The notes: a model not told the origin generated them from the letters alone. Positions 4,220 through 46,015 are shown, counted from the first letter of the stretch. The stretch is 64,000 bases of DNA from a virus (IMGVR_UViG_3300033074_001783:54964-118963); one strand, 5' to 3'. Numbers and translations: made by a program.

Positions 4220-7201
4220 TTATTGGTACATCCAAGCAAAAGAATTGCGCAGGTATTGATCCGCAGCCACTTGGTCGCGTCTTACACCCGGTTTTAATTT
4301 AACTCCGTTGTAAGATTCTGTTCTTGGCGCCATAAATTGATTGGAAACAGTTGGTTGAGGTGTAAATGGATCAGGCGTTGTTTGAGGCTCTTGACCAAAT
4401 CCAGCCAAAGAGGTGTTGATAGATCTCTTGGAAGTTGAGAAAGAAGCCAAAAAAGCCTTGTGCCAGTCGCTTATTGTTCCCTCTGTTGCAACGCTGCTTT
4501 GGAAAGAACCTTGCGGTGGAGCAACGTAACAACCGATTGCGAGAGCCATGATTAGATCGTCCGATCTGCCCTTGGCAGCCTGTCCTCGTTTTCCTGTCCA
4601 GTTAAAACTGCTCATTTGTTCTGCGAATCTTGCGGAGTAGATTTTCAGTTTTTTATTTCGCAATATCTCTTCTAAGTTGGAAAGAATCTGTTCTCTGCTT
4701 CCGGGTTGTGTTCCGGGTTTTGTTGTAAACCCCGGAAGTTTTTCTGCCAACTCTTCTGGAGTTAACAGCATCATTTCTTCTGGTGTGAGATCTGGCCAAT
4801 ACAAATTTGGATATTTTAGATCTCTTAATTTGATCGCAGTCGCGAGGCCGATGCTGTTTTTCTCTTGAACAATCAAAGCTGTGTTGTGTCTGTAGCCCAA
4901 TTCCACAAGGTACTCGCCATATCTATCGGGCGGTATTTTGCCAAGATACTCTGATGTTTGCTCCCAAGTGTTCATGTCAATGATCTCGGCGCCGCTGAAG
5001 TCTTCTGCGTCCCCTCTTGCAATGTCGGCACAAATGATATACTTGTGATCTGGTACTGGAACCTTCCATATGTGCAAATCTGTCAGGGCTTTCTGATGAG
5101 GACCACCATACATGACGGGAGGTTGTGTGCCTTGAGATACAGCGTCTATTGTTGTTTGATTGAAAAAAGTATTTCCAGAGGCTTCAAACGAGCAGTTGTG
5201 AACAATCAATCCTTGGACAACATAACTGTGGTCTTCTTCCACTTCAATGTTATAAACCACGCCATTCACAACACTGTGCGCAACTTGCTTGGTTTGAAAC
5301 ATGCCGACAACATAGTCATCAAAATTTCTTGTACGACTGGTTGGTTTCTCAAGAACTTCCTTGCCAACACGCATTACTTCTTGGATGGTTTTGGTCTGTA
5401 ATGATTCTAAACCATCCAATTCAATATACGAGTTGCCAGATGGATGATACCATACTCTTGGATAAAGACCGTACATGCCAAGCAAAATTCTAACCTGTTG
5501 CAGCAGTTTAGAAGAGGCACTAACCAATTTTAGTTTGTTGCCTTGGTTGTTGTGTTTAACGGCAGTTGGGTGATCGCCATCTCCGTCATAATGGCCAATA
5601 AGATAGCCGCGTACAAACTCTTCTGAACATGCAAGTACATGATTTAAACGTAAACGTTTTTCATGTGCTTTGCCATCTGTTACGAAATGTCTGTAACATG
5701 CTATGATGAATTTATTGCACGTACTCAACGTAAAACATTCCGAGTGTTGACGGATGTGTCTGGTATAAGTAACCCCCAATTCATCCAAATAATATTCAAC
5801 AAACTTACCCAAAGTGTCAAGTTCGTTTACGTGAAAAGCTAGTTGCAACGTTTCTGTCACAGCACCTTTTGGAGAAGTGTTTTTGATGATACACCCTTCA
5901 GCTACAGCTAACCCGATAAATCTACCAAGATTTTCATCAATTTTAACAAATCTCGGAATGGCTGGTGTGCGCTGTCGCCAATAGCTAACTTTTTCTGGAC
6001 CTATTGTTGCACATGCCACCGGAAGAGACGCCAAGTCAAGTGTGTGTTGTATGTTGCCAATAAGTTGTTTGTTGTTAATTGGATGTAAACATCCATAAAC
6101 ACGATTATTTGCATTTTTATCAAATGGGATTAACTCATCCAATGTGTTCCAACTTGGTTGGACACATTGGATTTTAATTTGATCCCATGCGTTGCCGCCT
6201 GTTGACCTGACATTTGTTTTGATAGACAAAACTGGGTGGTTACCAGTGATGTAAAATATGTCCTGTCTGTTGCAAGGTGTGGAAACTTGATACAGGTTTT
6301 CTCTTTGTTCCAAGTGCCTTGCTTGCGTTTGTTTGACTCGTTTGAATGTGCCGGTGTGGGTTAAAACCTCGTCGCCAACACAAATGTCTTTGGCATAAGA
6401 GTAACCGTGTGGTGTGAGTATTTTGGTATCACCTCCAACACAATTAAGTTCCTGCGCCATTTGTCTGTCATCCATGTTTTTTGACTCGGCATCAAACCAC
6501 GCTTGATCGTGGAATGGATGAACGTGCCAAGGAAGCTTCATGGTGACGAAGTTGTTTCTTTTTGCCTCCGCATCAATCCACAGTTTGTAGAATTGACCCG
6601 TCTTACCTCTTGGGGTGGAGAAAACAACAATGGACCCACCTTCTGTGGTGGTAGAAAGAATAGATTTCCAACCCTCCTCCAGTTTGGCATTGATTGCAGC
6701 TTCGTCAACAACCACGAAGGATGCTGCTTGACCACGGGCCGTGTCTTCTGTGGTGGGAAAAGCTTCTATTTTAGAACCGTTGGTTAGCTCAAGAACAGTG
6801 GCACTCTCACTTTTTGGAGCCGTGAGTTCAAGAACTTCTAACATCCAAGCTGGCAAGCCTCTCCAAGCTACTTTTATTTTTGCCAACATGTTTTTGCTAC
6901 CTCTGAAGTTGTCAGCGATGAGCAAAATGTTTTTATCTTTGTGAAACAACGCTAACCACAGGCAATAGGCGGACGTAACAGTTGTCAACCCCAACTGTCT
7001 GCTTTTTAGAATGATGTTATATCTGTTTGTCAAGAAGTTGTTGATAACATCTTCTTGGAATGGGTATAGTTCAAACTGAATTCTACCTTTGGTTGGGTGT
7101 TGGATTTCAAGGTAGGTTCTGATGAAATACAATGGGTCTTGGCCACATTTTAATATCTCATCTATCTGAGCGGATCTTTTCTTCTGAGACATACTAATCA
7201 A
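4220..7201 (-). CDS. terL: terminase large subunit (T4 gp17-like), intein-containing
   Basis: LYPFQ adenine motif, deviant Walker A KSRQLGLTT, Walker B VVVDEAA, STPRG coupling motif, RNase H nuclease ICADIARG..EDFS and SDDLIMALAI. Confidence 0.95.
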   Translation of the reverse strand: MISMSQKKRSAQIDEILKCGQDPLYFIRTYLEIQHPTKGRIQFELYPFQEDVINNFLTNRYNIILKSRQLGLTTVTSAYCLWLALFHKDKNILLIADNFRGSKNMLAKIKVAWRGLPAWMLEVLELTAPKSESATVLELTNGSKIEAFPTTEDTARGQAASFVVVDEAAINAKLEEGWKSILSTTTEGGSIVVFSTPRGKTGQFYKLWIDAEAKRNNFVTMKLPWHVHPFHDQAWFDAESKNMDDRQMAQELNCVGGDTKILTPHGYSYAKDICVGDEVLTHTGTFKRVKQTQARHLEQRENLYQVSTPCNRQDIFYITGNHPVLSIKTNVRSTGGNAWDQIKIQCVQPSWNTLDELIPFDKNANNRVYGCLHPINNKQLIGNIQHTLDLASLPVACATIGPEKVSYWRQRTPAIPRFVKIDENLGRFIGLAVAEGCIIKNTSPKGAVTETLQLAFHVNELDTLGKFVEYYLDELGVTYTRHIRQHSECFTLSTCNKFIIACYRHFVTDGKAHEKRLRLNHVLACSEEFVRGYLIGHYDGDGDHPTAVKHNNQGNKLKLVSASSKLLQQVRILLGMYGLYPRVWYHPSGNSYIELDGLESLQTKTIQEVMRVGKEVLEKPTSRTRNFDDYVVGMFQTKQVAHSVVNGVVYNIEVEEDHSYVVQGLIVHNCSFEASGNTFFNQTTIDAVSQGTQPPVMYGGPHQKALTDLHIWKVPVPDHKYIICADIARGDAEDFSGAEIIDMNTWEQTSEYLGKIPPDRYGEYLVELGYRHNTALIVQEKNSIGLATAIKLRDLKYPNLYWPDLTPEEMMLLTPEELAEKLPGFTTKPGTQPGSREQILSNLEEILRNKKLKIYSARFAEQMSSFNWTGKRGQAAKGRSDDLIMALAIGCYVAPPQGSFQSSVATEGTISDWHKAFLASFSTSKRSINTSLAGFGQEPQTTPDPFTPQPTVSNQFMAPRTESYNGVKLKPGVRRDQVAADQYLRNSFAWMYQ
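5195..6442 (-). mobile_element. intein with LAGLIDADG homing endonuclease (416 aa) in terL
   Basis: QELN/CVGGDTKILT N-junction, block B ITGNHPV, LAGLIDADG-like FIGLAVAEG and YLIGHYDGDG, block F VYNIEVEEDHSY, C-junction IVHN/CSF. Confidence 0.95.
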
Positions 7202-8282: not shown

Positions 8283-11200
8283 TTATACTTCTACTTTTGA
8301 TTCTAGCCCTGTGTTGATTACTTCTATCATTTTATCTGCCACTTCTTTAACTTGCGGAATGTGTGAAATAACCAATATCAACTTAAAATGGTTTTTCAAC
8401 ATGACAAGCAATTGTAAACATTTTTGAATGCTGTCTTCGTCCAAGGCTCCAAAGCCTTCATCTACTATTAACATATCTGGTCTTGGAAGTGAAGACAAAT
8501 TGTTGAGCGCTACTCTTAGAGCCAAAGAAGCGATCATTTTTTCCATTCCAGAACCAAGTTCAATAATTCTTTTTGAGTGGCCATCCTCTATGTAAACGTC
8601 CAAAGTGTTGGAGGAAACTTCAGTTTCTAACACGAGTTTGAAGTCTACCACATTGTTCAGGATGTTTGAAAGTTCATTGTTTAACATCGGCAACTGTGTT
8701 TTCAAAACCATTGCAGGAATGCCATTTTTACTAAACGCCTCTTGCACGCTTCCAAGAATGGTTAATTTTGACAACACCTCTTGGTATTCTTTTCGTTCTG
8801 TAGTTAGCTGAGTTATTTTTGCACCAAGTTGACCTATCTCCATTAACAAATCATTTTTACTTGATTCTGCCACTGCAAGCAATTTTTTGGCTTGCGCAAG
8901 CTCACGGTTTTTGGCGACCAACTCAGAAGTGTCAGGAGCATTCGCAACGGCAATGGCCAGTTCATCTCTAGCAGAGGTTTTTGTTGCAATCTTTTCTTTT
9001 GTTGCAGAAATTTCAGACAAACCCAATTTTATTTGTGTTTTGCATTGCTGCAATTTGCTTTCAAGATTCGTTATAGAAGCCGCAAGGGTGGCATGAGTTT
9101 GTAGTTGTGCGTCTATGCCCATTTTTGTCAATTCAACAATCTGCAAATTCTCCTGATCGCGTTTGCTTGTTAAATCGCCAACCAACACCAACTGCTGTTG
9201 GATTTTGGTTTTGTCCTCGTGTCCATCTTTAATGAAACGACAATGAGGAAACATGTCGCCGCAAGGGACCGTTTCAAGTTTCTTTACTGCTTTATCTTGT
9301 TCTTTCAAGACATGTGATTCTGTTTGAAGAGACAAGTTTACTTTATTGAGGTTTTCCTTGTGGTTGTTCAGTTTGTTTTTGAGTTTTTCTATCTCTTTGA
9401 TGTTGATTTTTTCAAATGCTGTTTTGCTTTCTTCAAGCTGCAAAGCAAGTTTTGCGCCCAACATTACAGCATCTTCATGTAATTTGTGAGCTTTTTTCAA
9501 ATCAACATTCGTCAACGTCTGCAATTCTTGCTCAAGTTTGACAAGTTTTGCTTTTAGTTCATCCGTATTCACCTGTTGCGCATTTGATATTAACCAAACT
9601 CTCAGTTTGTCAACCTCGTTACGAAACTCCCTGATGGTATCTTCCAGTTCTACCAAATCTACTTTTTTATTTTCCAACAACACTTCGGTCGTTGTAATTG
9701 CCTGATCCCATTCAACTGTGCTGTATTTGGAAGTTCTGGCATTGATGGCCTTGTAATCGTCATCTGCGTATTTGTTAAGAATTCCAAAAATATCAAGGTC
9801 AAGGAACCTGTTTAGAATCGCTTTTCTTTGTGTGGCACCTTGGTCTATGAATCTTGAAATGTCGCCTTGGCTTGAATACGCAGTTAACTGGAAATCCGCT
9901 GGAGTTCCAATTATTTTGCGTATTACTTTGTCGGTGTCATTTCTTGTGATGTCGTTTTCACTTCCCAAAGGAACAAGTTTACCATTTTCATCCACACGAT
10001 TAAATGTCAGAGTGGTTGTGGTTGCCATGACATCCTCTTGCCCTTTTTTAACTTCTTTTAAAGCAAGAGCACGGTCAACAACGTAATTCGTACCATTTGC
10101 AGAAAACCTTACTTTACATTTGGCAGAGCGTTTAGATCTGTTGATGTAATGACCAACGGCTCTTCCAATTTCCCGTTCTGTTGTGTTGAACAGACCGTAC
10201 ATCAAAGCGCTAACAACAGAACTTTTGCCGGTTTTATTCGGCCCAAACACGCCGACAATTCCAGAAAGTTTGTTGAAGTTGACACGATTGTTTTCTCCAT
10301 ATCTGAACAGGTTTGAGAACTCCAATTCCTTAACCGCCCAAATGACATCTCTAGCGCTTTCTTCGTTGTTTTGTTCTTTGAACTTTTGCACATATTTGGC
10401 AATAAGTTCTTCTCCTTCTTTCAACTGCGCCTCTGTAAACTCCAATTTTGCCAAATGAGAGGCAACATATTCTTTATACAGCGATACAAGAGAATTTACA
10501 TCGTTTCTCAGACTTGTTTTACAAATCGTGACGTTGCCAGTTTGTATGGACTGCAAGTTGTTTCTTGTCACGTCTTCTTTGAAAGACAGTTCTTCGCATT
10601 GACGGTTTTCTCTGATCTCTTGATAAAGTTGTCTTTTTTCTACTTGGGAAATCAAAGTATTGGCGAGAACTCTAACGCGAGTGCCCGGAACAAAACTGCT
10701 GTTTCCCCTAAGAGACTCAACGGTTGCAAGCGTTGCTCTAACAGAACCCATCCAAGGGATTGATATAAATGGAGTTTTGTTTTGTAGAGGACAAAATTCT
10801 ACATCCCAATCGTCTTTGGCTCTGATATCCCAAACATAAAATCCTTTGGTTTCATCTTCGCCATAATTTTGTTGAATCAACGAACCGGGATAACCAATCC
10901 AAGGTTTCGCAACCCCATCTTTATCTGGTCTTGTGGAAAGAAACTGCTGTTTGTGGATATCGCCCAAAAAAGCAAAATCATACTCCCTAAAGAAATCCAA
11001 CTGTTCTTCACCGTGAGTCATTCTCCAGTCTGAATCAGTTGCACAACCTGCAACAGAACCGTGATACAGGGCGATTCTTATCTTGTTTTCTTCTTTTGGA
11101 ACACGCCTGACGTTTTGCCAACCATCTTTGTCAAAGCAAGAAAACACACAAAGATGAACTTTGTTTCCAAGAAGAACGCTCGGATGTTTGGTTTCGTAAT

Positions 11201-11585
11201 CGTAGTCATACTGTTCCTCCGTCATCCACTCAGACAAACTTGTTACTTGGCTTTTTTTAAGAAGAATGATTCTTGGATCATTCATTGCTTGAATGATCGG
11301 AGAGATGAAATCTTCTCTTGAATCATTCGCAAGATTGCCGTCATGATTACCAAGGAGAACATACAATGGAGCAATGTTTGAAAGTTTCTTAAAAGACCAA
11401 GAAACTTTTGTGATTGCTTCTGGTGTGATGTTTTGTGTTTTTGTGTGCCAAGTATCACCTGTGTTGATGATGATATCTGGTTTAATGTTTTTCAACTGCT
11501 CACACAGTTGTTCGTGAGCGTCAACATATTCTGCATGGCGCGTGAGACCGCGCCAATGTATGTCGCTGATGTGTGCTATTTTCAT
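8283..11585 (-). CDS. fused Mre11/SbcD nuclease - Rad50/SbcC ATPase (T4 gp47-gp46-like)
   Basis: N-terminal SDIH, TGD, GNHD, GDIH phosphoesterase motifs; Walker A GPNKTGKS; coiled coil with central PCGDMFPHC; signature GSGME; Walker B LIVDEGFGALD; H-loop VISH. Confidence 0.93.
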   Translation of the reverse strand: MKIAHISDIHWRGLTRHAEYVDAHEQLCEQLKNIKPDIIINTGDTWHTKTQNITPEAITKVSWSFKKLSNIAPLYVLLGNHDGNLANDSREDFISPIIQAMNDPRIILLKKSQVTSLSEWMTEEQYDYDYETKHPSVLLGNKVHLCVFSCFDKDGWQNVRRVPKEENKIRIALYHGSVAGCATDSDWRMTHGEEQLDFFREYDFAFLGDIHKQQFLSTRPDKDGVAKPWIGYPGSLIQQNYGEDETKGFYVWDIRAKDDWDVEFCPLQNKTPFISIPWMGSVRATLATVESLRGNSSFVPGTRVRVLANTLISQVEKRQLYQEIRENRQCEELSFKEDVTRNNLQSIQTGNVTICKTSLRNDVNSLVSLYKEYVASHLAKLEFTEAQLKEGEELIAKYVQKFKEQNNEESARDVIWAVKELEFSNLFRYGENNRVNFNKLSGIVGVFGPNKTGKSSVVSALMYGLFNTTEREIGRAVGHYINRSKRSAKCKVRFSANGTNYVVDRALALKEVKKGQEDVMATTTTLTFNRVDENGKLVPLGSENDITRNDTDKVIRKIIGTPADFQLTAYSSQGDISRFIDQGATQRKAILNRFLDLDIFGILNKYADDDYKAINARTSKYSTVEWDQAITTTEVLLENKKVDLVELEDTIREFRNEVDKLRVWLISNAQQVNTDELKAKLVKLEQELQTLTNVDLKKAHKLHEDAVMLGAKLALQLEESKTAFEKINIKEIEKLKNKLNNHKENLNKVNLSLQTESHVLKEQDKAVKKLETVPCGDMFPHCRFIKDGHEDKTKIQQQLVLVGDLTSKRDQENLQIVELTKMGIDAQLQTHATLAASITNLESKLQQCKTQIKLGLSEISATKEKIATKTSARDELAIAVANAPDTSELVAKNRELAQAKKLLAVAESSKNDLLMEIGQLGAKITQLTTERKEYQEVLSKLTILGSVQEAFSKNGIPAMVLKTQLPMLNNELSNILNNVVDFKLVLETEVSSNTLDVYIEDGHSKRIIELGSGMEKMIASLALRVALNNLSSLPRPDMLIVDEGFGALDEDSIQKCLQLLVMLKNHFKLILVISHIPQVKEVADKMIEVINTGLESKVEV

Positions 11586-13167: not shown

Positions 13168-13755
13168 TTAATTGTGTGAAGGAAATAACAATTGACCGGC
13201 TTTTACAATAACAAACGAGTCGTTCATGTCTTTGTTGATGGCGTTGTATACGGTCTGTCCTTTGACTATATGTGTGATCCAAGGAAACTCAGGATGCATG
13301 GCGAGAGTCTGTTGGAAAACCTGATCTTTTTGATTCTTTCCTTTGACCTTGTAGCCAAGCTTTGATCTGGCCGAGATAACGTTTACGTCTTGAATCTCGC
13401 AACCGAAAATCTTTCTTGACAAGTAACAAACAATCCCATTGAACTTGGCAAGTGTGAGTACCGTGTCGGCGCTGCTTTGAGCAGAGAACCTCTTAGCATT
13501 TTCTTCCACAAAGATCCTTCTAACGCCACCTGTAGGAATTTGCAGATTTCGTAAAAGCCTCTCCATCTCATCTGCCTTATCCCAGAGAGTTGGGAATTTT
13601 GGACCTAACTGGAAAGCTTTAAGACAGGCCAGTTGTCCAGTAGAGGTGAGGAGAGCAAGGCCAGTGCAACTTGTTGAGATGTCAAGTCCAAGGTCGTAGG
13701 GACCTTCTGCAAGGAATTCAATTCGTTCAACTTCTTGATTGTGTGATTTGCCCAT
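13168..13755 (-). CDS. RuvC-like Holliday junction resolvase
   Basis: LGLDISTSCTG, IFVEE, LAKFNGIV, KDQV and DMNDS give the RNase H-fold D-E-D-D set. Confidence 0.82.
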   Translation of the reverse strand: MGKSHNQEVERIEFLAEGPYDLGLDISTSCTGLALLTSTGQLACLKAFQLGPKFPTLWDKADEMERLLRNLQIPTGGVRRIFVEENAKRFSAQSSADTVLTLAKFNGIVCYLSRKIFGCEIQDVNVISARSKLGYKVKGKNQKDQVFQQTLAMHPEFPWITHIVKGQTVYNAINKDMNDSFVIVKAGQLLFPSHN

Positions 13756-14108
13756 ATTTCAAATATAACTCCATTTTGTTCGCACCATACCCTAGCAGCG
13801 TTGCTTTTTTTAATCACCAAGGCGTTGGCTATTTTGTCTCCTCGTTTTACCTCAATCAGTTTACGGGTTCCATCTTTGTAGACAACTAGGAAATCAGGGT
13901 AATATCTACGAACTCTACCAGTTTTCAAATTGGAAATATAGGGAATAACAATGGATTCGTATGAATAGGAAACTACATTTTGATCTTGATCAAAATAGGT
14001 TGCAGCAACGAGCTCCCATCCAGACCTGTAATGCATAGGTCCGTTGGAAAGTTTCTCACTTGTGTGGATTCCTGTTTTGTATCTACTTTTTCTCTTCTTC
14101 TTTTTCAT
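13605..14108 (-). CDS. head completion nuclease (T4 gp4-like, TnsA_N PD-(D/E)XK fold)
   Basis: YRSGWE, YSYESIVIPY, RRYYPDF, LIEVK, K..AA..WC motifs; ATG at 14108 preferred over TTG at 14126. Confidence 0.85.
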   Translation of the reverse strand: MKKKKRKSRYKTGIHTSEKLSNGPMHYRSGWELVAATYFDQDQNVVSYSYESIVIPYISNLKTGRVRRYYPDFLVVYKDGTRKLIEVKRGDKIANALVIKKSNAARVWCEQNGVIFEIWANHTIKKLNELNSLQKVPTTLDLTSQQVALALLSSPLLDNWPVLKLSS

Positions 14109-14109
14109 G

Positions 14110-14133
14110 TAATGGAACCTAACCAATAGGAGA
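14110..14133 (-). repeat. 24-nt motif copy 1: TCTCCTATTGGTTAGGTTCCATTA
   Basis: 22/24 identical (17-nt exact core) to 48541..48564 on the opposite strand. Confidence 0.6.
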
Positions 14134-14820
14134 TCATTGTTTCAAGGAACTGTAAAATTGGAATGCCATTCTTATCATCACTGAATCAAACATGCGATAA
14201 ATTTCAGTATTTGTTTTTTGTAGTGTTTTCATGGTTTCTTCGTTTTTTTGAACAAGGGAAGAGAAGTTCACTGGTTGTTTGATGGCAAATGCATAGTTCA
14301 AATTTTCATCGTTTCCAAGGTTTGATTCATCGGAAAAAGAACCTTCAGATGGCATCTTTTTGATGTAGAATTCGTTTGCCCGATTAGTGAGATAATAAGC
14401 CCAAACTCTTCGTGCAAACTGAGACACATGTTTGCGATCAGAGGATAAAAATTCTGGTGATATGGAACTCATTGCAATATCGTACATTGGAGGTCCATAT
14501 CCTTTCAGGGCCGCGGCATAGCCAACATTCCAAGCACCAAACTCAGCCAAGTTTTCGTTTTTGATTTCCATGTAACCAACAATCACTTGTGGAGCAGCTT
14601 GCCTTAGAGATTCTTTTTCTTTTGCTTTTGGGTTGTTTGTAACAAATTTCAACAGTGTTTCTGGTTTATAGAAAATGAAATCTCGGTTTGTGCCATCATC
14701 ATCTACAAAAAGAGCAATTCCTTGTGATGCCAATGAATCAACAGAAACAGCAGCTTCATCCAGCAACTCTTCCGACAAAACCGATTCTGTCAATGATTTT
14801 AAAAGCAAGGATGATTTCAT
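14134..14820 (-). CDS. GNAT-like paralog 7 of 7 with acidic leader (putative internal head protein)
   Basis: leader LTESVLSEELLDEAA; core WNVGYAAALKGYGPPMYDIAMS...SDRKHVSQFARRVW. Confidence 0.75.
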   Translation of the reverse strand: MKSSLLLKSLTESVLSEELLDEAAVSVDSLASQGIALFVDDDGTNRDFIFYKPETLLKFVTNNPKAKEKESLRQAAPQVIVGYMEIKNENLAEFGAWNVGYAAALKGYGPPMYDIAMSSISPEFLSSDRKHVSQFARRVWAYYLTNRANEFYIKKMPSEGSFSDESNLGNDENLNYAFAIKQPVNFSSLVQKNEETMKTLQKTNTEIYRMFDSVMIRMAFQFYSSLKQ

Positions 14821-15467
14821 GAAAAATAACGTCCTTCAAAATATTTCATTGCCAGTTCAACCAATTCTTCTTCTGCTAGTTTTGGTTCAGACAACTTCCT
14901 CATTGTTTGTTTGTTGTTTACAACAAGTTTACCAAAATCTATTTTGTTTTTGATTGCGAACATGTAGTTCAAAGCTTTGTCATTTGGTTGCACGTCGTGC
15001 CAGCAAGCACCTTTTGGTGAAACTTGTTTGATCATGTAATCGTTTGCTCTTACGGTTAGCATGTAGTTCCAAACTTTTCTAGCTTGTTTACTTACGTTTT
15101 CTCTGTCTGCCGTTAGCAATTGTGGGCTTATGATACTCATTGCAATGTCGTACATCAAAGGACCATAGCCTTGCCTTGCTGCAATGGAGGAAACCACCCA
15201 ACCACCACAAAGTTTTTCGTAAGAAGAAGTTATTGCCATATAACCAACGACAACATATTCCGGTTCTATTGATTCTTGTTCATTCATCAAAGAAATAAAT
15301 TCATTTGGCTCATACAAAACTATGAATTTGGTAGCTCCTCCGTCTTTTATCAACAAAGCATAACCTTCGTTGAGAGCATCACCAACTGATCTGGCTGCTT
15401 CATCCAGTATCTCTTCTTTGATTGTTTCTTCGGTTAAGAATTCAACAATTTGCTGTACACTCATCAT
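14817..15467 (-). CDS. GNAT-like paralog 6 of 7 with acidic leader
   Basis: LTEETIKEEILDEAA; AARQGYGPLMYDIAMS...ADRENVSKQARKVWNYMLTVRANDY; 4-nt overlaps. Confidence 0.75.
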   Translation of the reverse strand: MMSVQQIVEFLTEETIKEEILDEAARSVGDALNEGYALLIKDGGATKFIVLYEPNEFISLMNEQESIEPEYVVVGYMAITSSYEKLCGGWVVSSIAARQGYGPLMYDIAMSIISPQLLTADRENVSKQARKVWNYMLTVRANDYMIKQVSPKGACWHDVQPNDKALNYMFAIKNKIDFGKLVVNNKQTMRKLSEPKLAEEELVELAMKYFEGRYFS

Positions 15468-16117
15468 CCACCAATTTTCAATCCAAAGAATATGAAACCT
15501 GCATCTTGAATAAGCTCTGCAATGTTTTCTTCGTTCAATCCATCGTCATTCACCATGTTTTGTATACATCTTTGGTGGTTCGCAATCAAAGGTTTGTAGT
15601 TGACCGGATCTTTGATTGCGAACGAGTATCTCATTGCAGCGTCACCGTTTTCATTTCCATGTTTGCAGTTTTGCCCGACGGGTTGAATGTTGTAATCATT
15701 TGCTCTTACAGTCAGCATGTAAGCCCAAACTCTTCGTGCAGACTCAGAGGTGTCTCTTCTGTCGGCCATTAAACTTTCCGGGGATATACGACTCATTGCC
15801 ATGTCATACAACACAGGACCATAGCCACGTTCTGCACCTGCCATTTTCGTAACCCAAGCATTGCAGTCGTCGTCTTTGGCCATGCTGAAATAGCCAACAA
15901 TCGCGGCTTCAGCAACAGCCTCATACCCTTCGCTATATTTCTCTCTCAACACGTCTGGTCTGTACAGGATGAATTTGCAGATTCCTCTACCGTAATCTTC
16001 CACTAGGAGTGCGATGTCCTCAAAATCCAAATCTGCAATTTGTTTTGCAGCTTCGTCCAACAACTCTTCTGAAAGAACGTTCTCAGCAAGAGATCGTATT
16101 ATCTTGTTTTTTTTCAT
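15464..16117 (-). CDS. GNAT-like paralog 5 of 7 with acidic leader
   Basis: LAENVLSEELLDEAA; GAERGYGPVLYDMAMS...ADRRDTSESARRVW. Confidence 0.75.
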   Translation of the reverse strand: MKKNKIIRSLAENVLSEELLDEAAKQIADLDFEDIALLVEDYGRGICKFILYRPDVLREKYSEGYEAVAEAAIVGYFSMAKDDDCNAWVTKMAGAERGYGPVLYDMAMSRISPESLMADRRDTSESARRVWAYMLTVRANDYNIQPVGQNCKHGNENGDAAMRYSFAIKDPVNYKPLIANHQRCIQNMVNDDGLNEENIAELIQDAGFIFFGLKIGG

Positions 16118-16767
16118 TTTTCTCTTGTCCTGTACTTCTCGTTGAAGAATTCTGTTTCACTTGAGGTAATAATTTGCTGTAAGTCTTCAATCGGATACGA
16201 ATATGTCTTCATTAAGTATTCAATTGTTTTGTTGTGATTTTCAACAAGAGATTTGTAGTCAATCGGATTTTTGATTGCAAAGGCATGATTCAAAGCAGGT
16301 TCATTTTGATGGAGTGGAGCAGGAGATGGTTTCACCTCATACTCGTTCGCTCTTAAAGTTAGGTTGTGATTCCAGATTTTCTTTGCAGCCTTGGAAACAG
16401 ATGACAAATCAGAACGCAAAAAATCAGGTTTGATGTATGACATTAAAATATCATACATCAAAGGACCGTAACCTTGAACTGCCGCAGAACCAGTCACAAT
16501 CCATGTGTGTTTGTAATTGTTGCTTTTTTTGGCTGCAATCGTACCAATGGTCATCAAGAGTTTGTTGCTTCTTGAAGCAAACCCGTCTATAATCATGTTT
16601 TCAAGAATGTTGGGATCATACAAGGCAAATGTTGTCTCGTTGTTTTGTGAAATATACAAAGCAAGATGACTGGCATCTCCGATGGATTTGGCAACTTCGT
16701 CCAACAGTTCTTCCGACATTGCCTCTGAAATGATTTTGTCAACTATTTGGTTTAAATTTGATTTCAA
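16114..16767 (-). CDS. GNAT-like paralog 4 of 7 with acidic leader
   Basis: IISEAMSEELLDEVA; SAAVQGYGPLMYDILMS...SDLSSVSKAAKKIW; TTG at 16767 preferred (track gives 16791). Confidence 0.75.
   Translation of the reverse strand: MKSNLNQIVDKIISEAMSEELLDEVAKSIGDASHLALYISQNNETTFALYDPNILENMIIDGFASRSNKLLMTIGTIAAKKSNNYKHTWIVTGSAAVQGYGPLMYDILMSYIKPDFLRSDLSSVSKAAKKIWNHNLTLRANEYEVKPSPAPLHQNEPALNHAFAIKNPIDYKSLVENHNKTIEYLMKTYSYPIEDLQQIITSSETEFFNEKYRTREK
16254..16304. repeat. 51-bp exact direct repeat, copy 1 (paralog 4)
   Basis: tgtagtcaatcggatttttgattgcaaaggcatgattcaaagcaggttcat identical to 16876..16926. Confidence 0.92.
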
Positions 16768-17380
16768 AATATTTATTGCCCCCTCTCTCAATTGCGTGCA
16801 AAACTGTTGGTGTTTTCACATTGTATATTCTGTCTAACATCGCTACAGTTTTTACATGGTTTGTTAACAGCTTGCTGTAGTCAATCGGATTTTTGATTGC
16901 AAAGGCATGATTCAAAGCAGGTTCATCCCTGTTGTCAGAAATTTGTTTAATGATAAAATCGTTTGGTCTTACGGTCAACATGTAGTTCCAAACTTTTCTA
17001 GCAGAACTTGAAACACTGCTTCTATCTGAAGTAAGATAACCCGGCGAAACAGCCGACATGGTGATGTCGTAAAGTAAAGGTCCAAATCCTTTTTCCGCTG
17101 CTGAACCACCTATTACCCAAGCGTCCAGAGTGTTTTTAAACTCCGCATACATTGTCGCAACAATTATGTTGCTCAATCCTTTATCTGAGTAGTCATTGTT
17201 TTCAACGAGGTCTTCCAACTCTTTGGGGCTGTACAGATCAATATAAATTTCCGTGTTGTTTTTCTTGACACAAAGTGCCAAACCTTCTTGAATAGCGGAA
17301 CCAATGTCTACGGCTGCTTCATCAAGAAATTCTTCATCTAGTGTTTGTTCCGTAAGTGTACGAATTATGTTATTTGTCAT
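16739..17380 (-). CDS. GNAT-like paralog 3 of 7 with acidic leader
   Basis: LTEQTLDEEFLDEAA; SAAEKGFGPLLYDITMS...SDRSSVSSSARKVW. Confidence 0.75.
   Translation of the reverse strand: MTNNIIRTLTEQTLDEEFLDEAAVDIGSAIQEGLALCVKKNNTEIYIDLYSPKELEDLVENNDYSDKGLSNIIVATMYAEFKNTLDAWVIGGSAAEKGFGPLLYDITMSAVSPGYLTSDRSSVSSSARKVWNYMLTVRPNDFIIKQISDNRDEPALNHAFAIKNPIDYSKLLTNHVKTVAMLDRIYNVKTPTVLHAIERGGNKYFEIKFKPNS
16876..16926. repeat. 51-bp exact direct repeat, copy 2 (paralog 3)
   Basis: identical to 16254..16304. Confidence 0.92.
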
Positions 17381-17994
17381 GTTTCACCTGACATTACGGT
17401 AAAAAAATGATCTCCCGAATTAAGCAGCGTTCTTGTGGCATTTGTGTTTTTCATTTTTTTCATCAATGATTCATGTCTTGCCACAAGAGAAGAAAAATCA
17501 ATCGGATTTTTGATTGAAAATACACGTTTTAATTCTTCTTCTTGGTAACCAGCTAAACATTTGTTACCTTGTAGTTTTTTGGTGTTGAAATCGTGTGCCC
17601 TAACAGTCAACATGTAAGCCCAAACTCTTCTAGCTTGTAGTGATACAGAGTTCCTATCGGCTCCAAGATAATCAGGTGCGATAGCACTCATCGCAATATC
17701 ATACATCAAAGGACCGTAACCTTTTAATGCTGCGGAATATTGAACAAACCAAACATCACAGTTTTGATTATAAGTGATATTTATAAATCCTACAATTGAA
17801 TCTGTTAAAAGTTGGGTGCCAGATTTGAAAGACCAAGCAAATACCTCTGGTCTATAAAGAACAAACTGTTTCCCCAGACCATCTTTATGATACAGCAAAG
17901 CCAATTTTTCTTGGTCTGATTGCTGAATGGTTTTTGCTGCTTCGTCAAGAATTTCTTCCGACAACACATTTTCTATGAGTTGATTTAATTTCAT
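17377..17994 (-). CDS. GNAT-like paralog 2 of 7 with acidic leader
   Basis: LIENVLSEEILDEAA; SAALKGYGPLMYDIAMS...ADRNSVSLQARRVW; ATGA overlap at 17994. Confidence 0.75.
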   Translation of the reverse strand: MKLNQLIENVLSEEILDEAAKTIQQSDQEKLALLYHKDGLGKQFVLYRPEVFAWSFKSGTQLLTDSIVGFINITYNQNCDVWFVQYSAALKGYGPLMYDIAMSAIAPDYLGADRNSVSLQARRVWAYMLTVRAHDFNTKKLQGNKCLAGYQEEELKRVFSIKNPIDFSSLVARHESLMKKMKNTNATRTLLNSGDHFFTVMSGET

Positions 17995-18632
17995 GACCAC
18001 CTTCTGTTGAACTCTTCTTCCGCAGCACCTTCCAAGGTCATCGCGTATTGGTCCTCAATGTACATATCCTCCGCTTTTTTAAGCCAATCAAGATGAGTGT
18101 AAAGAAGAGGTTTGTAATCAATCGGATTTTTGATTGAGAAGGCATAGTTGAGAAAATCTGGTTTTCCCAAACCGTTTTTGTCGTAAAAACTACAACCGGC
18201 GGGTTTGATGTTGTAATCATTAGAACGCACGGTAAACATGTAGTTCCAAATTTTCCTAGCAGATGCAGATACACGTCTTCTGTCCGAGATAAGAAATTCT
18301 GGAGCGATGTAAGACATGGCCAAATCATACATCAAAGGGCCATATCCTTTTTGTGCAACCGTTGTTGTGATTTCCCATGCACCACACTCGCTTACATCCG
18401 TTTCAAAAAATATACTTCCAACAACAAGTTCTGTGCTGCTTACGCTCTCACGTTGTTGAATTCTTGGAATTATCAATTTTGGTTCGTAAAGGATCATTCT
18501 GATGGATTCATTCTGATCATCAACATACAAAGCCAAACCGTTGTTTATTGCGTCTTGTGCCGAAGACGCAGCTTCGTCCAACAACTCTTCTTGTAGAGTT
18601 CGTTCAACAAGCAGATCTAAAAGTGGTTGCAT
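17991..18632 (-). CDS. GNAT-like paralog 1 of 7 with acidic leader
   Basis: LVERTLQEELLDEAA; VAQKGYGPLMYDLAMS...SDRRRVSASARKIW. Confidence 0.75.
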   Translation of the reverse strand: MQPLLDLLVERTLQEELLDEAASSAQDAINNGLALYVDDQNESIRMILYEPKLIIPRIQQRESVSSTELVVGSIFFETDVSECGAWEITTTVAQKGYGPLMYDLAMSYIAPEFLISDRRRVSASARKIWNYMFTVRSNDYNIKPAGCSFYDKNGLGKPDFLNYAFSIKNPIDYKPLLYTHLDWLKKAEDMYIEDQYAMTLEGAAEEEFNRRWS

Positions 18633-18647: not shown

Positions 18648-21008
18648 TCAGAAATCAAGACGCGTTTTAAACATGATTCTGTCGGTTGTTCTCAACACAA
18701 TAGGCTGTGCCAAAGAAGTACGCATGATGACATTCAAGTTGTCATCATGAATGTTGATTCCGGTTATGTAAGAAAAACGTTTGTCTACATCTGTGTCCAA
18801 CACAGATGCGCTAACTGGCATGTAACTTGGGTTTGAAGAAGAGACGTGCTCATAGGGGTTTGCCAACAAACTAAAATGCAACACATGAATGTTTCTGTCC
18901 CCTTGGAAATCAATGGAAAATTCTTCTTTGCCAAAGAAATATGTTTGTGGGTGTTTCAGAACAACAATTCCTTCATTGTAGAAGATGTTTCCAACAGATG
19001 CCCAAGTTGCGTGTGAACCAGTGGAATCTGCCCTGTACAAATTACCTTCTCCGTCATCTCTGATGGTCATTCTTACTTTACCGCCAGAGCCGGATAGATT
19101 TGAATCTGTCAAAACAAAAGAGCGAGGTTTGATTCTGTCTCCATAATAAAGGTTGCTTATGTCAAAGAAAACGGTTTGATTGGATGAATCATCTCTTGTT
19201 CTTTGAAGTATGGTATATGTCTCTCCGACTGGAAGTGTCAAGGCACTTGGCCCCGCCCCTTGCAAGTTTGACACTATTGAACCTGTTAATGTATCTTCAG
19301 CCATTCCTTTGGACAAGCTTCCGGTTGGAATGACATGCCGCAAAGATACATTCCCAATATCTTGGTTGCCAAGATCATTTACAAACTGACTTTTATTTAA
19401 AGGCCCCAAGAAGCCGCTGAAGTTTGGATAGAAAGTTCCGTTGTCGCATGGCAGCACAGTTAAACTGCGCTTTCTTACAGAAGAGGTTGCATAGAGAATT
19501 TCATTGGCCGTTTGTGGAATGTCGGAAGTTGTACTAATAACAGAACCAGACAACTCCCAAAGTCTTGGGTAAGCGCCATTCACGAATTCTCTTGTGTAGT
19601 TTTCAAGGTTCGTGTAATGACCTCCAACCGAGAAAGCCATCCCAACAGCAAATGGCATATCTGTGGTGCCATCATAAGTGTAGAAAGGTGTTTCCAACAC
19701 ACCTCCTGAACCGTTGTAATAGGTTCTGGTGGGTGATTCTTTTGTGAAAAAAGGTGGCAGATAAAACAACAGCCCATTTTGGTTTTTTGGACCAGATACC
19801 CTTAAATCTGCTATTTCGTCTAATGTTAAATATTTGCTGTAGATTTTCAAATCATGGATTTCGGCATTTAACGGATGAGCAAACCTATAACCCAAAGGAG
19901 CAAATCCAGAATCAACAATTAGTTCTTGCAATCCTTCTCTGGTGCTTGTATCTGTGCTAAAAAAATAAGCCATGCTAGCACTACCAGCATTCAATCCTTC
20001 ATAGTAGTTGCCAACGCACAAAACACATGGATCGTCTTTCGTGGGGGAAAATGTGCGTGGTATTATGGAAGCAGAAGGAATCGCAAAACTGCCAACCTCT
20101 TCATCATCAACTACAAAAGAACCAGAACCCAAGTTGTATTCAAGCGAGCCCCAACGAATTGTTACATGATGCCAGTTATTCTTTATCAGACAATTGTCAT
20201 TGGAGGCGAAAGCAAACTGTGGAAGACCACCAATAGAGAGAGAAGAGGGGCTAGAATCTGCACTGTTTGATAGTTGTAATAAAAGTCTGAATTTATCAGG
20301 TTTGCCAGAGCCGTCTTTTGATGAGCCGGTCACAAGAGAAACTGCATAACAAGAGGAGAGATGCAATATGGTTCCCGCGTGAAAATGGGAAACATCTTCA
20401 TCTGAACTGTATTTCGGATTGATCCAAAAATCAAACGAAAAAGCACCAGACGGTATGTAGGGACCAGATATTGTACCATCCACTGAAGATGTGATTGGAT
20501 TGGCATACAAAAGAGAACTGCCGGTTGGTACAAAAGAACTGGTAAAAAAATTCAAAGAGTGATAATTGGTAAAGCCATAATGGGCATTTGGGTAACTTGT
20601 TCTGTAGTAGGGATACAAAGAGTTTAAAATAGAAGATTTACGCAATGCGTCTTGGTCCAAAGAAACCCCCGGCGTAAATCTTATGACATCCACCTGTTGT
20701 TGCAACCTTGCAGAAATCTGCTGATTGTTTAGTGCAGACAAGTAGTCGGTAATGTGCATCTGGTTGCTGCCACTGATGTCTGATGCATTTTTAGCGGAGC
20801 GCAACAGTTGGTTGAGATCAAGATCATGGAAAAAAGAACTTGAATATATGGCCAAAGGGACGACTTCTTTTTCTCTTGGAGATCTCCTTGGAAATACATT
20901 TAGTTTTCCTGTGGAATTGCCAAAAGAACTAGAAACGTAATGTCTGGTGGGGTGTGTTTGCAGAGAAAATGTTTCTACATCTTCTGGCAGAATGCGTTTT
21001 ATTGCCAT
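18648..21008 (-). CDS. virion structural protein with LamG-like domain and tail-collar-like C-terminus
   Basis: FSFDFWINP, NNWHHVTIRW, AEIHDLKIY (LamG pattern); C-terminal YITGINIHDDNLNVIMRTSLAQP...RLDF; many SGS/TGS. Confidence 0.7.
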   Translation of the reverse strand: MAIKRILPEDVETFSLQTHPTRHYVSSSFGNSTGKLNVFPRRSPREKEVVPLAIYSSSFFHDLDLNQLLRSAKNASDISGSNQMHITDYLSALNNQQISARLQQQVDVIRFTPGVSLDQDALRKSSILNSLYPYYRTSYPNAHYGFTNYHSLNFFTSSFVPTGSSLLYANPITSSVDGTISGPYIPSGAFSFDFWINPKYSSDEDVSHFHAGTILHLSSCYAVSLVTGSSKDGSGKPDKFRLLLQLSNSADSSPSSLSIGGLPQFAFASNDNCLIKNNWHHVTIRWGSLEYNLGSGSFVVDDEEVGSFAIPSASIIPRTFSPTKDDPCVLCVGNYYEGLNAGSASMAYFFSTDTSTREGLQELIVDSGFAPLGYRFAHPLNAEIHDLKIYSKYLTLDEIADLRVSGPKNQNGLLFYLPPFFTKESPTRTYYNGSGGVLETPFYTYDGTTDMPFAVGMAFSVGGHYTNLENYTREFVNGAYPRLWELSGSVISTTSDIPQTANEILYATSSVRKRSLTVLPCDNGTFYPNFSGFLGPLNKSQFVNDLGNQDIGNVSLRHVIPTGSLSKGMAEDTLTGSIVSNLQGAGPSALTLPVGETYTILQRTRDDSSNQTVFFDISNLYYGDRIKPRSFVLTDSNLSGSGGKVRMTIRDDGEGNLYRADSTGSHATWASVGNIFYNEGIVVLKHPQTYFFGKEEFSIDFQGDRNIHVLHFSLLANPYEHVSSSNPSYMPVSASVLDTDVDKRFSYITGINIHDDNLNVIMRTSLAQPIVLRTTDRIMFKTRLDF

Positions 21009-24648: not shown

Positions 24649-27600
24649 TAGTTCACCGTTTCTACAGAGACAAATAGGTCATCAAAAACAAACGAGTCCT
24701 CATTGTCTCTTGAGATGTATTCTTGGTCTCCCACTCGTTTAATTCTCTTTTGTGTTCTTGAGTTTTCGTAACTTGTTGTACCTGCAAAAGTTTGTTTTGT
24801 TGTTTCAACATCTATTGGGAAATCGTCTACGTCAACAGGTATAATGAAAACTCTATCAAATAGTTTTTTACCAAGAATATTTTTGTTTAATGTTTTGTCA
24901 GAAAACAATCCACTTGACAAAGATATCAAATTCAATTCGTCAACGAGTTCTTTCGGTATAATGCCCGTGGTTGGAATGGGTGTGTTTTTCACAACAGCAA
25001 AATAGTTTTTCACCAAACGGTCAACCGCTGGATTTATATCTGTTTTTACCTGATCGTTTAGAACAAATGTTTCTTCTGCTGTTGGCAAACTTGCAGCCAA
25101 CAGCAAATAAGAAGATAGCAAACCCGATTCAAAATGATTTTTGAATAGCGATTCTTTTTCTGGTCTGCTTAAAGAATCGTATTTCTGATTTGTAAGCAAA
25201 CTGTTTCTTGAAATTGTTCTGGCAGTTCCATCAGAAAAATCAAACAAGGAAACAGCATCCAACACCCTTGAATAAGAAGTGTTTAAAGTGATGTCAAAAC
25301 CTGTTGGTTGATTGTAAAACAAAGACATATCAAACAGGAATTTTTGTGGTTTGAACACAACGTCATCAAATTCCATCATTTTTTTGTTTACAACAATTTT
25401 GAAGGTGTCCAAATCATTTTTTGAAAATGTTTGGTTGTTGATTTTGTTGCGTTTTGCACGATTGGTGAGATTGTCAATAAAACCAGTTGGAATGCCAACA
25501 ACCAACAACTTGACTCTCTGGTTTTTGTATGGATTCTCTTTGGTCAAAGACAAAATCAAATTGCGCTCATTGGTTGAGACTAGTTTGGTGCCACTAAAAC
25601 CTGTTTTTGGGGTTTTGGTAAAAATATAGTTTGCCAATTTCAACTGGCCCAATGGAACTTGAGTTGGTGCTCTCTCTTGTGCTTTTTCTAATGAGAAATA
25701 AACGCTTGCCCTACGAGATGCTTGTGTGATTCGTGTGCTTAAAACTGACAATATATGCATAACATTTTGCACATATATTTCTTCCTTTTCAAGTTTTTCA
25801 AAAATGTTGTTTAAGACAACCTCAAGAACGCTGCTGGCAGTTGTTTTTGTAGTTTGTTGATTCAACTGTTTGGCACCAACTGGCAACGGAGTTGAACTGG
25901 TGCTTCCGGTTGGTGGTTTGTGCAAAGAAAATTGATTGAAAATCATCTTTGTGTTGTGGTTGGCAACCACATTGACTTCTACATTGAATGATAAAATTTG
26001 ATTGTTTTTTACAAAATCTACAAAAACATATCTTTTTGATATTGCTCCAAAGAGTTCATACAACATCGCGACCAAGTAAGATGAACTCAAATAATTGAAT
26101 TTTGTCCTACCGCTGTTGTCTTCCAGTAGATAAGAAAATTCGTCTCCATTCAACATCGCTTCTTGATCAACATCATTGCAAAAATTGATAAATTCTTTGA
26201 AAATTGAATTTCTAACAGAACCAACAGATAGCATTAGTATTCTTGAAATGGCCCCTCTTTCCACAAGAATGGTGGTTTTGTCTGGATCGGAATTTGATTG
26301 TGGTACGATTCCAAACGACGCAACAGACACTCTGGCATCTGGGTTCATTATAGCAAAAACGCGGGCTTCTATTTCTTCAGAACAGGAATTTATTTTTCTT
26401 TGCAGAGAAGATAGGTTTGGCAGAAGAGTTTTGTCGTTTTGTTCATTTAATGCTCTTGTGAATATTGGTTTTGTGTCATTTGATGCTGCTCCTAATAAAA
26501 GTAAAAATTTCAACAGCAGCATTCTGAGTTGCTTGTCTGTAGAACTCAACCTAAACAAAGCAAATCCAACAGCATCTTCAATTTGAACTGTACGCTTATT
26601 GGAAAGATTTTCCAGCAAAGTTGCCCAAGCTGTCAAAGCGTTTTTTAGAATGCTTGCAGGACTGTTTGAATAATTCTCAAATTCAAACAATTCTCTTAAA
26701 ACAAGATTAACATCACCAATTGATGTTGCAAATTTGTTTGCATAGTCAATGAACGGCTGAACGTTGAAATCCCCGTTATTTGTCAGATTTACAATGGAAT
26801 CAACATAATAACGAACGCCGGGAATAAACGTAGACTGGTTGTCGTCTATGAATTTACTCTCAAACGGTAACACGAAATTATTTTCATTCAATTTGGAATA
26901 AAATAGACTTGACAGAGATCTTGTCCCAAGTGGAGCATCAAAAATTGTGTCCCCCGGCAAACCAATCATGTTGTCAAAAGGATTTCCATCTCTTGTGGCT
27001 AAAAAAGTGTCTGTTAGTTTTCTTTTTACAACTGGTTTCGCCAAACCTTTTGAGACTCGCAACTCTTTGGATAAAGAATGAACCAAAAGTTTCAAACGAT
27101 CATCTGGATTTTGTGGCAGCGCAGCGACGAAAGAAGAAAATTCTTTTTGTTCAAGAATGTTTCTTGGGGTGTTTGTTGACCGAAAACTTTCAATTGTAAA
27201 ATTACGCGTAATGGTTTTGTCAAGTGTTGTTGGATTCTTGTCTTCTGATCTATCTTGGTCTGTTGTGTCAAACAGACCAAGAGAGTAACTTTCCAACGAT
27301 TGTCTGAAATCAAACAGCATTTGTTGTAAGATTTTTGTTTCGGAGAACGTGTAAAACAAAGAAGGTTGGTACTGCATACCTCTTTCAAAAAATGACCGAG
27401 GTGTCATGAACCGAGAAGTGTCAAACATGGTGTCTGGAATCGTTTTCACATCAAACGATTTGGCAATCTCAGTGAGTTCTACAAAATCTGCGGTTTGACC
27501 AACCAGCGAAGATTCAATAACGCCCAATCTTCTTGTGTAGTCAATCTGAACATTCTGCAATTCTTGGGCAAGGGTAGAGGAACCCGTTATAGCCGAGTAC

Positions 27601-31332: not shown

Positions 31333-31343
31333 GCAGATATGTA

Positions 31344-34119: not shown

Positions 34120-34122
34120 TGG

Positions 34123-42214: not shown

Positions 42215-42218
42215 GTGT

Positions 42219-45707: not shown

Positions 45708-46015
45708 TCCTCTTCAATGGTAACGTACTTATTTTTGCTAAGACGTACGAAATCTTCCGCCACCTGTTGTGTAGCTGCTTTGCAAATTTTGACATCCTCT
45801 AAAACTTCTGTTGCTGCTTTAAGGATAGCAGGGCTATCATAAAACATTGGCATTTCAAGCAAAGCGTTCATCGTGTTTAATGTTCTTACATGAACAGCTA
45901 TGGCTTCCGATAAATGATCTTCTATTGCCATGATCGGCATTACAAGTTTGTAAATAAGATATGCTTCAAAAATCACTACTCCAAATAAAACCACGACAAA
46001 CAAATAGATCATCAT
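45704..46015 (-). CDS. membrane-anchored protein
   Basis: N-terminal hydrophobic segment IYLFVVVLFGVVIFEAYLIY followed by helical domain. Confidence 0.65.
   Translation of the reverse strand: MMIYLFVVVLFGVVIFEAYLIYKLVMPIMAIEDHLSEAIAVHVRTLNTMNALLEMPMFYDSPAILKAATEVLEDVKICKAATQQVAEDFVRLSKNKYVTIEEE

Follow-up and report, generated by a model that had tools for sequence, protein, structure and literature searches.

Seven tandem paralogs with T4-type leaders and a GNAT-like fold in a T4-related virus: candidate head-packaged, injected enzymes

In the T-even phages, capsid targeting sequences and diverse internal proteins (IPs) are established, and Alt of T4, a packaged ADP-ribosyltransferase, provides a precedent for enzymes as head cargo (PMC3012670, PMC9026906). 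The first 10 residues of T4 IPIII suffice for capsid targeting, and its processing is governed by residues 8 and 10 (PMC9026906). The head ejection paralogs of phiKZ and SPN3US form family A (PF12699), with 2-7 members, and family B, with 2-20 (PMC5694885), and the deployment of phage GNATs through capsids or polyvalent proteins has been predicted earlier (Iyer et al. 2017, PMC5512222; PMC7824862). Here we analyze a 64,000-nucleotide stretch of viral DNA (IMGVR_UViG_3300033074_001783:54964-118963, hereafter the window), in which a listing of open reading frames (ORFs) gives seven back-to-back minus-strand paralogs at positions 14134-18632. We propose, with a probability of roughly one half, that these paralogs are GNAT-fold enzymes which are packaged in the phage head, trimmed by the prohead protease, and injected; packaging, cleavage, injection, catalysis, and targets are all predictions.

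The array proteins share several features with IPI, IPII, IPIII, and Alt of T4. They have a short N-terminal leader that begins with MK... and ends in hydrophobic-x-Glu, followed by Ala, Ser, or Gly; one leader type is found on proteins that are otherwise unrelated; the genome also encodes a gp21-type protease and, with a homologous site, a gp23-type capsid protein; and the diverse cargo genes are clustered in a variable locus. Compared with those of the T4 IPs, the leader has about double the length, usually contains two hydrophobic-x-E motifs, and nearly always has Ala at P2′, and the putative cargo is a single GNAT-fold family expanded sevenfold instead of a set of unrelated small basic proteins. 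The array proteins have no sequence similarity to any T4 IP.

The phiKZ and SPN3US head proteins are likewise clustered or tandem paralogs in giant phages, with copy numbers that vary among related phages, and the array leaders may be likened to the N-terminal propeptides that a T4-related prohead protease removes from them (PMC5694885). The proteases of those phages, however, cut at S/A/G-x-E rather than L/I-x-E, no enzymatic fold is predicted for those families, and the array proteins show neither a PF12699 match (Pfam, E up to 1) nor tblastn similarity to cultured phages. With the polyvalent-protein GNATs the present family shares a predicted delivery together with the DNA and an occurrence either alone near structural genes or inside giant multidomain virion proteins (PMC5512222). 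Those GNATs are RimI-like and are seen by standard profiles, whereas the present family is not, and the giant proteins that contain it are of the tape-measure type (PF10145); for the polyvalent-protein GNATs, neither tandem expansion nor a leader of T4 type is described.

With the most plausible starts, the seven genes encode proteins of 205-228 amino acids (aa; Table 1), and ATGA overlaps are found at five of the six junctions, which for paralog 6 requires the ATG at 17994. At the junction of paralogs 5 and 4 the overlap amounts to 29 nt if paralog 4 begins at TTG 16767, a start that yields the N-terminus MKSNLNQ..., similar to those of its siblings and of the ortholog in a near relative, L084. 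The paralogs are about equidistant, with pairwise identities of 31-42%, and 31 columns are invariant among the seven, including E-E-x-L-D-E-x-A, A-L, Y-x-P, W, G-x-G-P-x-x-Y-D, D, S, A, W, T-x-R, and F-x-I-K. An earlier note on this DNA had described consecutive, mostly ATGA-coupled paralogs of this size, with shared motifs separated by hypervariable segments and with a head-completion gene and a virion block on the two sides, and all of this is borne out. Conservation per 10 residues, in the numbering of paralog 2, is 0.7-0.87 in the core versus 0.27-0.39 at residues 41-50, 61-70, 151-160, and 191-210; residues 81-90 are also weakly conserved, and the leader and core are highly conserved. The neighbors are a gp4-type nuclease gene on one side and the LamG protein and baseplate genes on the other.

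L-D-E falls at residues 20-23 in all seven paralogs, and in an alignment of 105 family sequences the site in front of the domain has a hydrophobic P3 residue in 102/104 (L 70, I 18, V/F/M 14), Glu at P1 in 102/104, and Ala at P2′ in 100/105. The pattern (L/I/V/F/M)-x-E-x-A is thus kept in about 100 of the 105 diverged members, at a median distance of 19 residues from the protein start, and a second hydrophobic-x-E lies further upstream in 86. T4-like N-termini occur in family members from very different contigs, such as MKLSEIFDELFE↓A, MRLTRRQLRYLIKE↓A, and MKISVCNLRILVNMLSE↓A (the arrow marks the predicted cut). The propeptides of T4 itself, as read in NC_000866, are MKTYQEFIAE↓A for IPII and IPIII, MAKINELLRE↓S for gp24, MLKEQLIAE↓A for gp22, and FLTE↓A at E65 for gp23. 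In T4, exchange of the P1 Glu for Asp blocks cleavage.

A protease of the appropriate type is encoded just upstream of the window (gp21-type, Table 1), and the capsid protein, which is gp23-type (phrog_138, 6e-70), carries VLQE↓A at E70, 41 residues before SVQPM, where T4 gp23 has LTE↓A 47 residues before GVQPM. The alignment of LQE↓A with the T4 site suggests that the specificity of the protease is probably conserved. A hidden Markov model (HMM) of the leader, built without the Met columns, matches non-family proteins at their N-terminus in 27 of 39 cases, versus 4.6 expected (p about 7e-17), the single matches to such proteins being weak (E >0.05). Among them are a 111-aa prohead-core protein encoded beside the protease, MKITRSELKSVIKECLKELITE↓G, and its orthologs. 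The T4-type leader assumed in the earlier note is supported. A complex prediction of the protease with leader residues 1-60 gave a score of 0.00 and is uninformative either way.

Other proteins carrying leaders of this kind were encountered in the same genome. A 235-aa protein begins with MKLNLLIENMVMGVLQE↓G, a leader of T4 type, and in its alignment an Arg is seen together with S-W-T and E-x-E blocks; its model is of low confidence (mean predicted local distance difference test, pLDDT, 61.5) and matches almost only ADP-ribosyltransferase folds, weakly (Z 2.5-5.7). Its homologs adjoin family members in two other loci, in one of which the homolog begins MKIRLSELRRMIRE↓A. The protein is a possible, weakly supported counterpart of T4 Alt with the same leader, which would lend independent support. 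N-terminal leaders are also present on a 237-aa protein (phrog_4301), whose homologs in three further loci likewise begin with MK..L..E leaders, and on a 252-aa protein; they and the prohead-core protein of 111 aa may be further head cargo. In two fused doublets of about 400 aa, the domains are joined through SLDEAA, as though the prohead protease were to separate them.

The fold of the domain was modeled with AlphaFold2 for paralog 2 on the basis of the 105-sequence alignment. The model has a mean pLDDT of 91.9 and consists of the leader (residues 1-23), a GNAT-like core (about 27-177), and C-terminal helices (179-214). In a full scan of 48,161 PDB representatives (VIA), the top 50 matches are all GNAT-fold, with Z scores of 5.4-7.7, root-mean-square deviations of 2.6-4.8 Å, and 84-121 aligned residues; they include NatD (the best, Z 7.7), the GNAT domain of ICL2, Elp3, TacT3 (Z 6.6), AtaT (6.5), and AcrVA5 (5.7). 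Foldseek places MOF, HBO1, KacT, and KKT23 on top in the PDB (E 3e-3 or weaker) and viral GNAT and NAT_SF proteins on top in BFVD. It is the uniformity of these lists, in which the leading matches are GNAT or MYST acetyltransferases throughout, rather than the absolute scores, that carries the argument for a GNAT fold in the model.

The positions conserved best across the 105 sequences are A97, G100, G102, P103, Y106, D121, R122, A129, W133, and R140. In the model they map to β4-loop-α3 (A-x-K/Q/R-G-Y-G-P) and β5-α4 (D-R-x-x-V-S-x-x-A-x-x-V-W), which are the elements that in GNATs hold the pyrophosphate and pantetheine of acyl-CoA. The A-x-(K/Q/R)-G-(Y/F)-G-P motif lies exactly at the β4/α3 junction, with G102 invariant and G100 present in at least 90% of the 105 sequences. 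Together with the structural matches, this supports the GNAT-like fold that the earlier note had assigned, in AlphaFold and Foldseek runs that it had suggested. An hhalign comparison of the family with a Pfam-positive GNAT domain is not significant (E 0.2), its motifs being in register. In neighboring ESM Atlas clusters, 15-48% of the members have PF00583; in the 1367-aa protein P0057, three family domains are followed by two PF00583/PF14542 GNAT domains and these by an HNH domain; and one protein (L043) has a canonical GNAT domain followed by a family domain.

Among GNAT effectors and toxins, TacT and AtaT acetylate aminoacyl-tRNA, AcrVA5 acetylates Cas12a, and Rac of phiKMV acetylates the α subunit of RNA polymerase; to our knowledge, none of these is virion-packaged. 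The presence of TacT3, AtaT, and AcrVA5 among the structural matches illustrates possible actions of a phage-delivered GNAT. Their identity to the array proteins is 11-15%, and the scores of the model separate them neither from housekeeping GNATs nor, as tRNA-acetylating toxins and an anti-CRISPR acetyltransferase, from N-terminal acetyltransferases.

Two further lines connect the family to the virion, in agreement with the earlier expectation of virion association. The first is synteny, read from loci with 10-kb flanks. The family directly follows the capsid gene in portal-protease-core-scaffold-major capsid protein modules of nine loci (two genes further in another one), lies between the LamG protein and the gp4-like gene in seven loci of the closest relatives, among them a 317-kb contig with two family copies, follows the gp4-like gene in one more, and stands beside sheath or tube genes in four. 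The second is the embedding of the core domain, with all motifs kept, in proteins of 4189, 4648, and 5102 aa from relatives. The PF10145 tape-measure domain is confirmed in the 4189- and 4648-aa proteins, where the family core occupies residues 1639-1714 and 1837-1988, respectively, and the 5102-aa protein has the same N-terminus. Since tape-measure proteins leave the virion at infection, the embedded copies would be delivered with it.

The genomic position by itself could also point to counterparts of T4 gp2, the DNA-end protector, or of Inh, the protease inhibitor. The array adjoins the gp4-like gene as gene 2 adjoins gene 4 in T4, many relatives carry the family after the major capsid protein gene, which is roughly the position of T4 inh (downstream of genes 23 and 24), and the sizes are similar (226-274 aa). 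We consider this highly improbable, as the fold matches are uniformly GNAT and there is no PHROG match. In hhalign comparisons with the family profile, T4 Inh and gp2 gave E values of 0.34 and 0.25 over only 14-32 aligned columns, and the identity was dropped.

Regarding expression, a single TATTTA heads the array, as the earlier note had stated; it is part of GTATTTAA and lies 5 nt upstream of the first array ATG. The related motif CTA[GT]TTAA has 6 copies in the 33-kb head/tail module, versus about 1.3 expected, all on the coding strand, and it is a candidate late promoter. The copies precede the portal gene, the tube gene, and four others, with a gap of 4-5 nt to the ATG (15 nt in the case of the tube). 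Judged by the geometry of T4 late promoters, late mRNAs started there would lack a 5′ leader entirely or almost so. The T4 late promoter itself, TATAAATA, shows no enrichment, with 1 match versus 1.2 expected. GTATTTAA has the same 4-nt spacing from its gene, and the array begins only 15 nt after the structural gene upstream of it. Late expression of the array is on these grounds likely rather than established.

The array is a tandem expansion, each protein consisting of a leader and a divergent GNAT-fold domain of roughly 190 residues. The N-terminal leader of 20-23 residues is an amphipathic element of the T4 capsid-targeting and propeptide type, ending in L-D-E↓A-A, and the domain keeps the G-x-G loop and the β5-α4 elements of the acyl-CoA site. 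According to the proposed mechanism, the products, made alongside the late structural proteins, would dock through their leaders onto the prohead core, where the gp21-type protease would cut after Glu, as predicted for the capsid protein. The mature enzymes of 21-23 kDa would remain in the head, enter the host with the DNA, and modify targets there, different ones for different paralogs, with acyl-CoA from the host.

A number of observations weigh against this proposal. The structural scores are modest (Z <8, with the weak Foldseek values given above), and the first position of motif A is Ala (≥90%), where the usual GNAT residue is Gln or Arg. GNAT profiles (Pfam clan CL0257, e.g., PF00583) match neither the seven paralogs nor the 105 relatives, and a search of this genome with PF00583 at E up to 10 found nothing; as membership in a named family is not seen at the profile level, we label the proteins GNAT-fold rather than as members of a named GNAT family. 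Blastn and tblastn searches with four family queries gave no match in 50,697 records of cultured phages. The predicted mature proteins are mostly acidic to neutral (isoelectric points 4.8-9.2), in contrast to the basic internal proteins of T4, and the conserved E-x-A might cap the domain structurally instead of marking a cleavage site. GTATTTAA departs from the late-gene motif CTA[GT]TTAA at the first base, and the window shows no enrichment of this G variant. As to the cap, copies embedded in larger proteins begin at profile positions 36-86 and lack the leader, and fused doublets keep hydrophobic-x-E-x-A at the inter-domain junction in four of six cases, which favors a detachable signal over a structural element.

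The residue in motif A and the silence of the sequence profiles would also suit packaged proteins that are not enzymes, that is, internal head, core, or ejection proteins using a degenerate GNAT scaffold for binding, for example as stoichiometric inhibitors of host defense proteins like T4 IPI* or as bulk proteins like those of phiKZ and SPN3US. The leader, the synteny, and the way in which the array has expanded likewise recall the IP loci of T-even phages and the head paralogs of phiKZ and SPN3US (PMC3012670, PMC5694885). However, G100, G102, P103, Y106, D121, R122, A129, W133, and R140, the most conserved positions, fall on the acyl-CoA-site elements of GNATs, they are kept even in the copies embedded in tape-measure proteins, and relatives are fused to canonical GNAT domains. 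Packaged proteins that are not enzymes are distinctly unlikely in our judgment.

Enzymes that are not packaged have also been considered. Here, cytoplasmic late GNATs would modify phage or host molecules during assembly, such as the N-termini of structural proteins or sugars and amines linked to the glycan island, the N-terminal helix would serve oligomerization or localization, and E-x-A would be structural. The GNAT-like fold with its conserved cofactor motifs agrees with this, the best structural match being an N-terminal acetyltransferase (NatD), the late-gene placement suits a role in assembly equally well, and a large glycosylation island is present in the same window, although about 26 kb away from the array. 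What such a role leaves unexplained is the same leader type on unrelated neighbors, including the prohead-core protein, the agreement of P3 and P1 with the gp21 rule in so many diverged members, and the building of the domain into tape-measure proteins. It is therefore rather unlikely, and head-packaged, injected enzymes are the reading that we prefer.

The evolution of the array can be followed in two relatives. L084 keeps the order 7-6-5-4 with identities of 100, 81, 95, and 89%, and the more distant L085 has 5-like, 3-like, and 2-like genes at 52-68% identity. The overall dN/dS ratio between orthologs is 0.10-0.17. It is higher in the variable segments (0.33-0.45), and no window exceeds 1, that is, the array genes are under purifying selection with relaxed surfaces. 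Among the paralogs themselves, at 31-42% identity, synonymous sites are saturated. The regional dN/dS analysis recommended in the earlier note thus does not bear out its idea that variable faces have diversified against host targets. Paralogs 4 and 5, whose proteins are 41% identical, share an exact tract of 51 nt, and synonymous divergence from the L084 orthologs is patchy, from 0 to 0.67 per 30-codon block, which together indicate gene conversion or recombination within the array. In some relatives, GIY-YIG homing-endonuclease-like genes (weak matches) interrupt the family locus or its neighbors, which suggests that mobile elements contribute to turnover there.

The window is the last part of a virus contig of 118,963 bp with an estimated completeness of 32%, which implies a phage genome of roughly 350 kb or more. 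The source phage is a distant member of the T4 superfamily. Within the window are a large terminase gene with inserts, an Mre11-Rad50 fusion, a primase, a RuvC-like gene, GroEL, a gp55-like late sigma factor, baseplate wedge genes, and a glycan/glycosylation island, and a block of genes for large virion proteins, including those for the LamG protein and the baseplate wedge, lies upstream of the array. Just upstream of the window are the portal, the gp21-type prohead protease, the small prohead-core protein, a scaffold-like protein, the gp23-type capsid protein, two sheath paralogs, and the tube. The capsid protein matches 2,578 records of T4-like phages, the best being Microcystis phage Mel-JY01, Flavobacterium immuto phages, and two uncultured phages of 484 and 595 kb. 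Coordinates of these features are collected in Table 1.

Table 1. Features of the array and its surroundings. Array genes are in transcription order with lengths from the most plausible starts; positions are those of the window, except that G000 denotes the region of the same genome upstream of the window (loci L078 and L079) and other L numbers denote loci of relatives.
Feature	Coordinates	Strand	Remarks
Paralog 7	17991-18632	minus	213 aa; first gene of array; leader MQPLLDLLVE-RTLQEELLDE↓AA
Paralog 6	17377-17994	minus	205 aa from ATG 17994, matches database call P0005; longest start GTG 18000 gives 207 aa
Paralog 5	16739-17380	minus	213 aa
Paralog 4	16114-16767	minus	217 aa from TTG 16767; longest ORF from TTG 16791, 225 aa
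Paralog 3	15464-16117	minus	217 aa
Paralog 2	14817-15467	minus	216 aa; copy modeled
Paralog 1	14134-14820	minus	228 aa; last array gene; 7 nt before gp4-like gene
Exact 51-nt tract, paralogs 4 and 5	16254-16304 and 16876-16926		
GTATTTAA	18637-18644	minus	4 nt before paralog 7 ATG; one-mismatch variant of CTA[GT]TTAA; putative promoter
gp4-type head-completion/TnsA-like nuclease	13605-14126	minus	phrog_218 8e-22, PF08722 6e-16; directly downstream of array
LamG-domain virion protein	18648-21008	minus	786 aa; directly upstream, 15-nt gap; syntenic family partner in closest relatives
Large terminase	4220-7201	minus	993 aa
Mre11-Rad50 fusion	8283-11585	minus	1100 aa, one ORF
gp6- and gp25-like baseplate wedge genes	40373-42698		
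Glycan/glycosylation island	44958-64000		
CTA[GT]TTAA sites	G000 25888-25895, 27297-27304, 36985-36992, 42294-42301, 49441-49448, 51424-51431	coding strand	upstream of window
gp21-type prohead protease	G000 48005-48625		phrog_207 6e-44
Prohead-core protein	G000 47673-48008		111 aa; leader
235-aa protein	G000 37675-38382 (L078:13675-14382)	minus	leader
237-aa protein	G000 36267-36980		phrog_4301; leader
252-aa protein	G000 25124-25882		leader
Tail-sheath paralogs	G000 28043-31036 and 31127-34225		997 and 1032 aa
Fused doublets	L010:1163-2380 and L011:9356-10558		SLDEAA at junction
GIY-YIG homing-endonuclease-like genes	L008:6400-7900 and L076:4815-5687		weak

Three other features of this genome deserve mention. 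The N- and C-terminal terminase matches of the large terminase are split by an insert that matches ribonucleotide-reductase- and helicase-type PHROGs and resembles an intein or another inserted element. The Mre11-type phosphoesterase and the Rad50/SMC-type ATPase, whose T4 counterparts are the separate genes gp47 and gp46, are joined in one ORF, and the fusion is kept in the 317-kb relative. The two tail-sheath paralogs lie side by side, with the phrog_23 match in the C-terminal third of both.

Searched against 1.84 billion representative proteins, a profile of the seven paralogs matches 1,977 representative clusters (E up to 1e-3); it also finds 67 IMG/VR loci. A scan of the genomes of 185,579 prokaryotic species gives only three loci, all in metagenome-assembled genomes, and the ESM Atlas neighbors of the family are 89-100% viral. 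Neither Pfam nor PHROGs contains a family that matches the seven paralogs (Pfam at E up to 1) or the 105 relatives, a profile search of PDB sequences returned only noise, and the same kind of search did not find the family in Mel-JY01, immuto, LR756508, or LR756511, the four records whose capsid proteins are closest. The family is thus large, virus-restricted, and unannotated.

Expansions similar to the present array occur on other contigs, with seven matches in L046/L048, six in L058, and four in L014, and L010 and L011 have a fused doublet and two further family genes. Copy number in related genomes, which the earlier note had proposed to examine, thus reaches 4-7 members on several other contigs, and its statement that no seven-member array of this kind had been described is too strong, also in view of the head-paralog arrays and capsid-deployed GNATs in the literature. 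What is new is this very large, unannotated, virus-restricted GNAT-fold family with its near-universal T4-type leader, two apparent delivery contexts, and repeated tandem expansion.

Proteins that enter the cell along with the phage DNA are active ahead of any phage gene expression, and the few that are understood, such as Alt and IPI of T4 and the Dar proteins of P1, are host-takeover or anti-defense factors. Tentatively, the family may represent a general class of virion-delivered acyltransferase effectors, which different phages would deliver either through a T4-type leader into the head or as part of the tape-measure protein. In that case the array would be an arsenal directed at several targets, with a separate host component of defense, transcription, or translation acylated by each paralog within seconds of DNA entry.

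With the present results, an unannotated, virus-only family gains a testable assignment: its fold resembles that of acetyltransferases, its leader obeys the capsid-targeting and cleavage rule of T4, and synteny with head modules and tape-measure fusions independently link it to the virion. If the assignment is true, protein or RNA acylation would be added to the chemistry delivered by virions. Head cargo of uncultured T4-related phages could then be sought by a sequence rule, which in this genome also flags the ADP-ribosyltransferase-like neighbor. The seven paralogs would then constitute a ready panel for target discovery.

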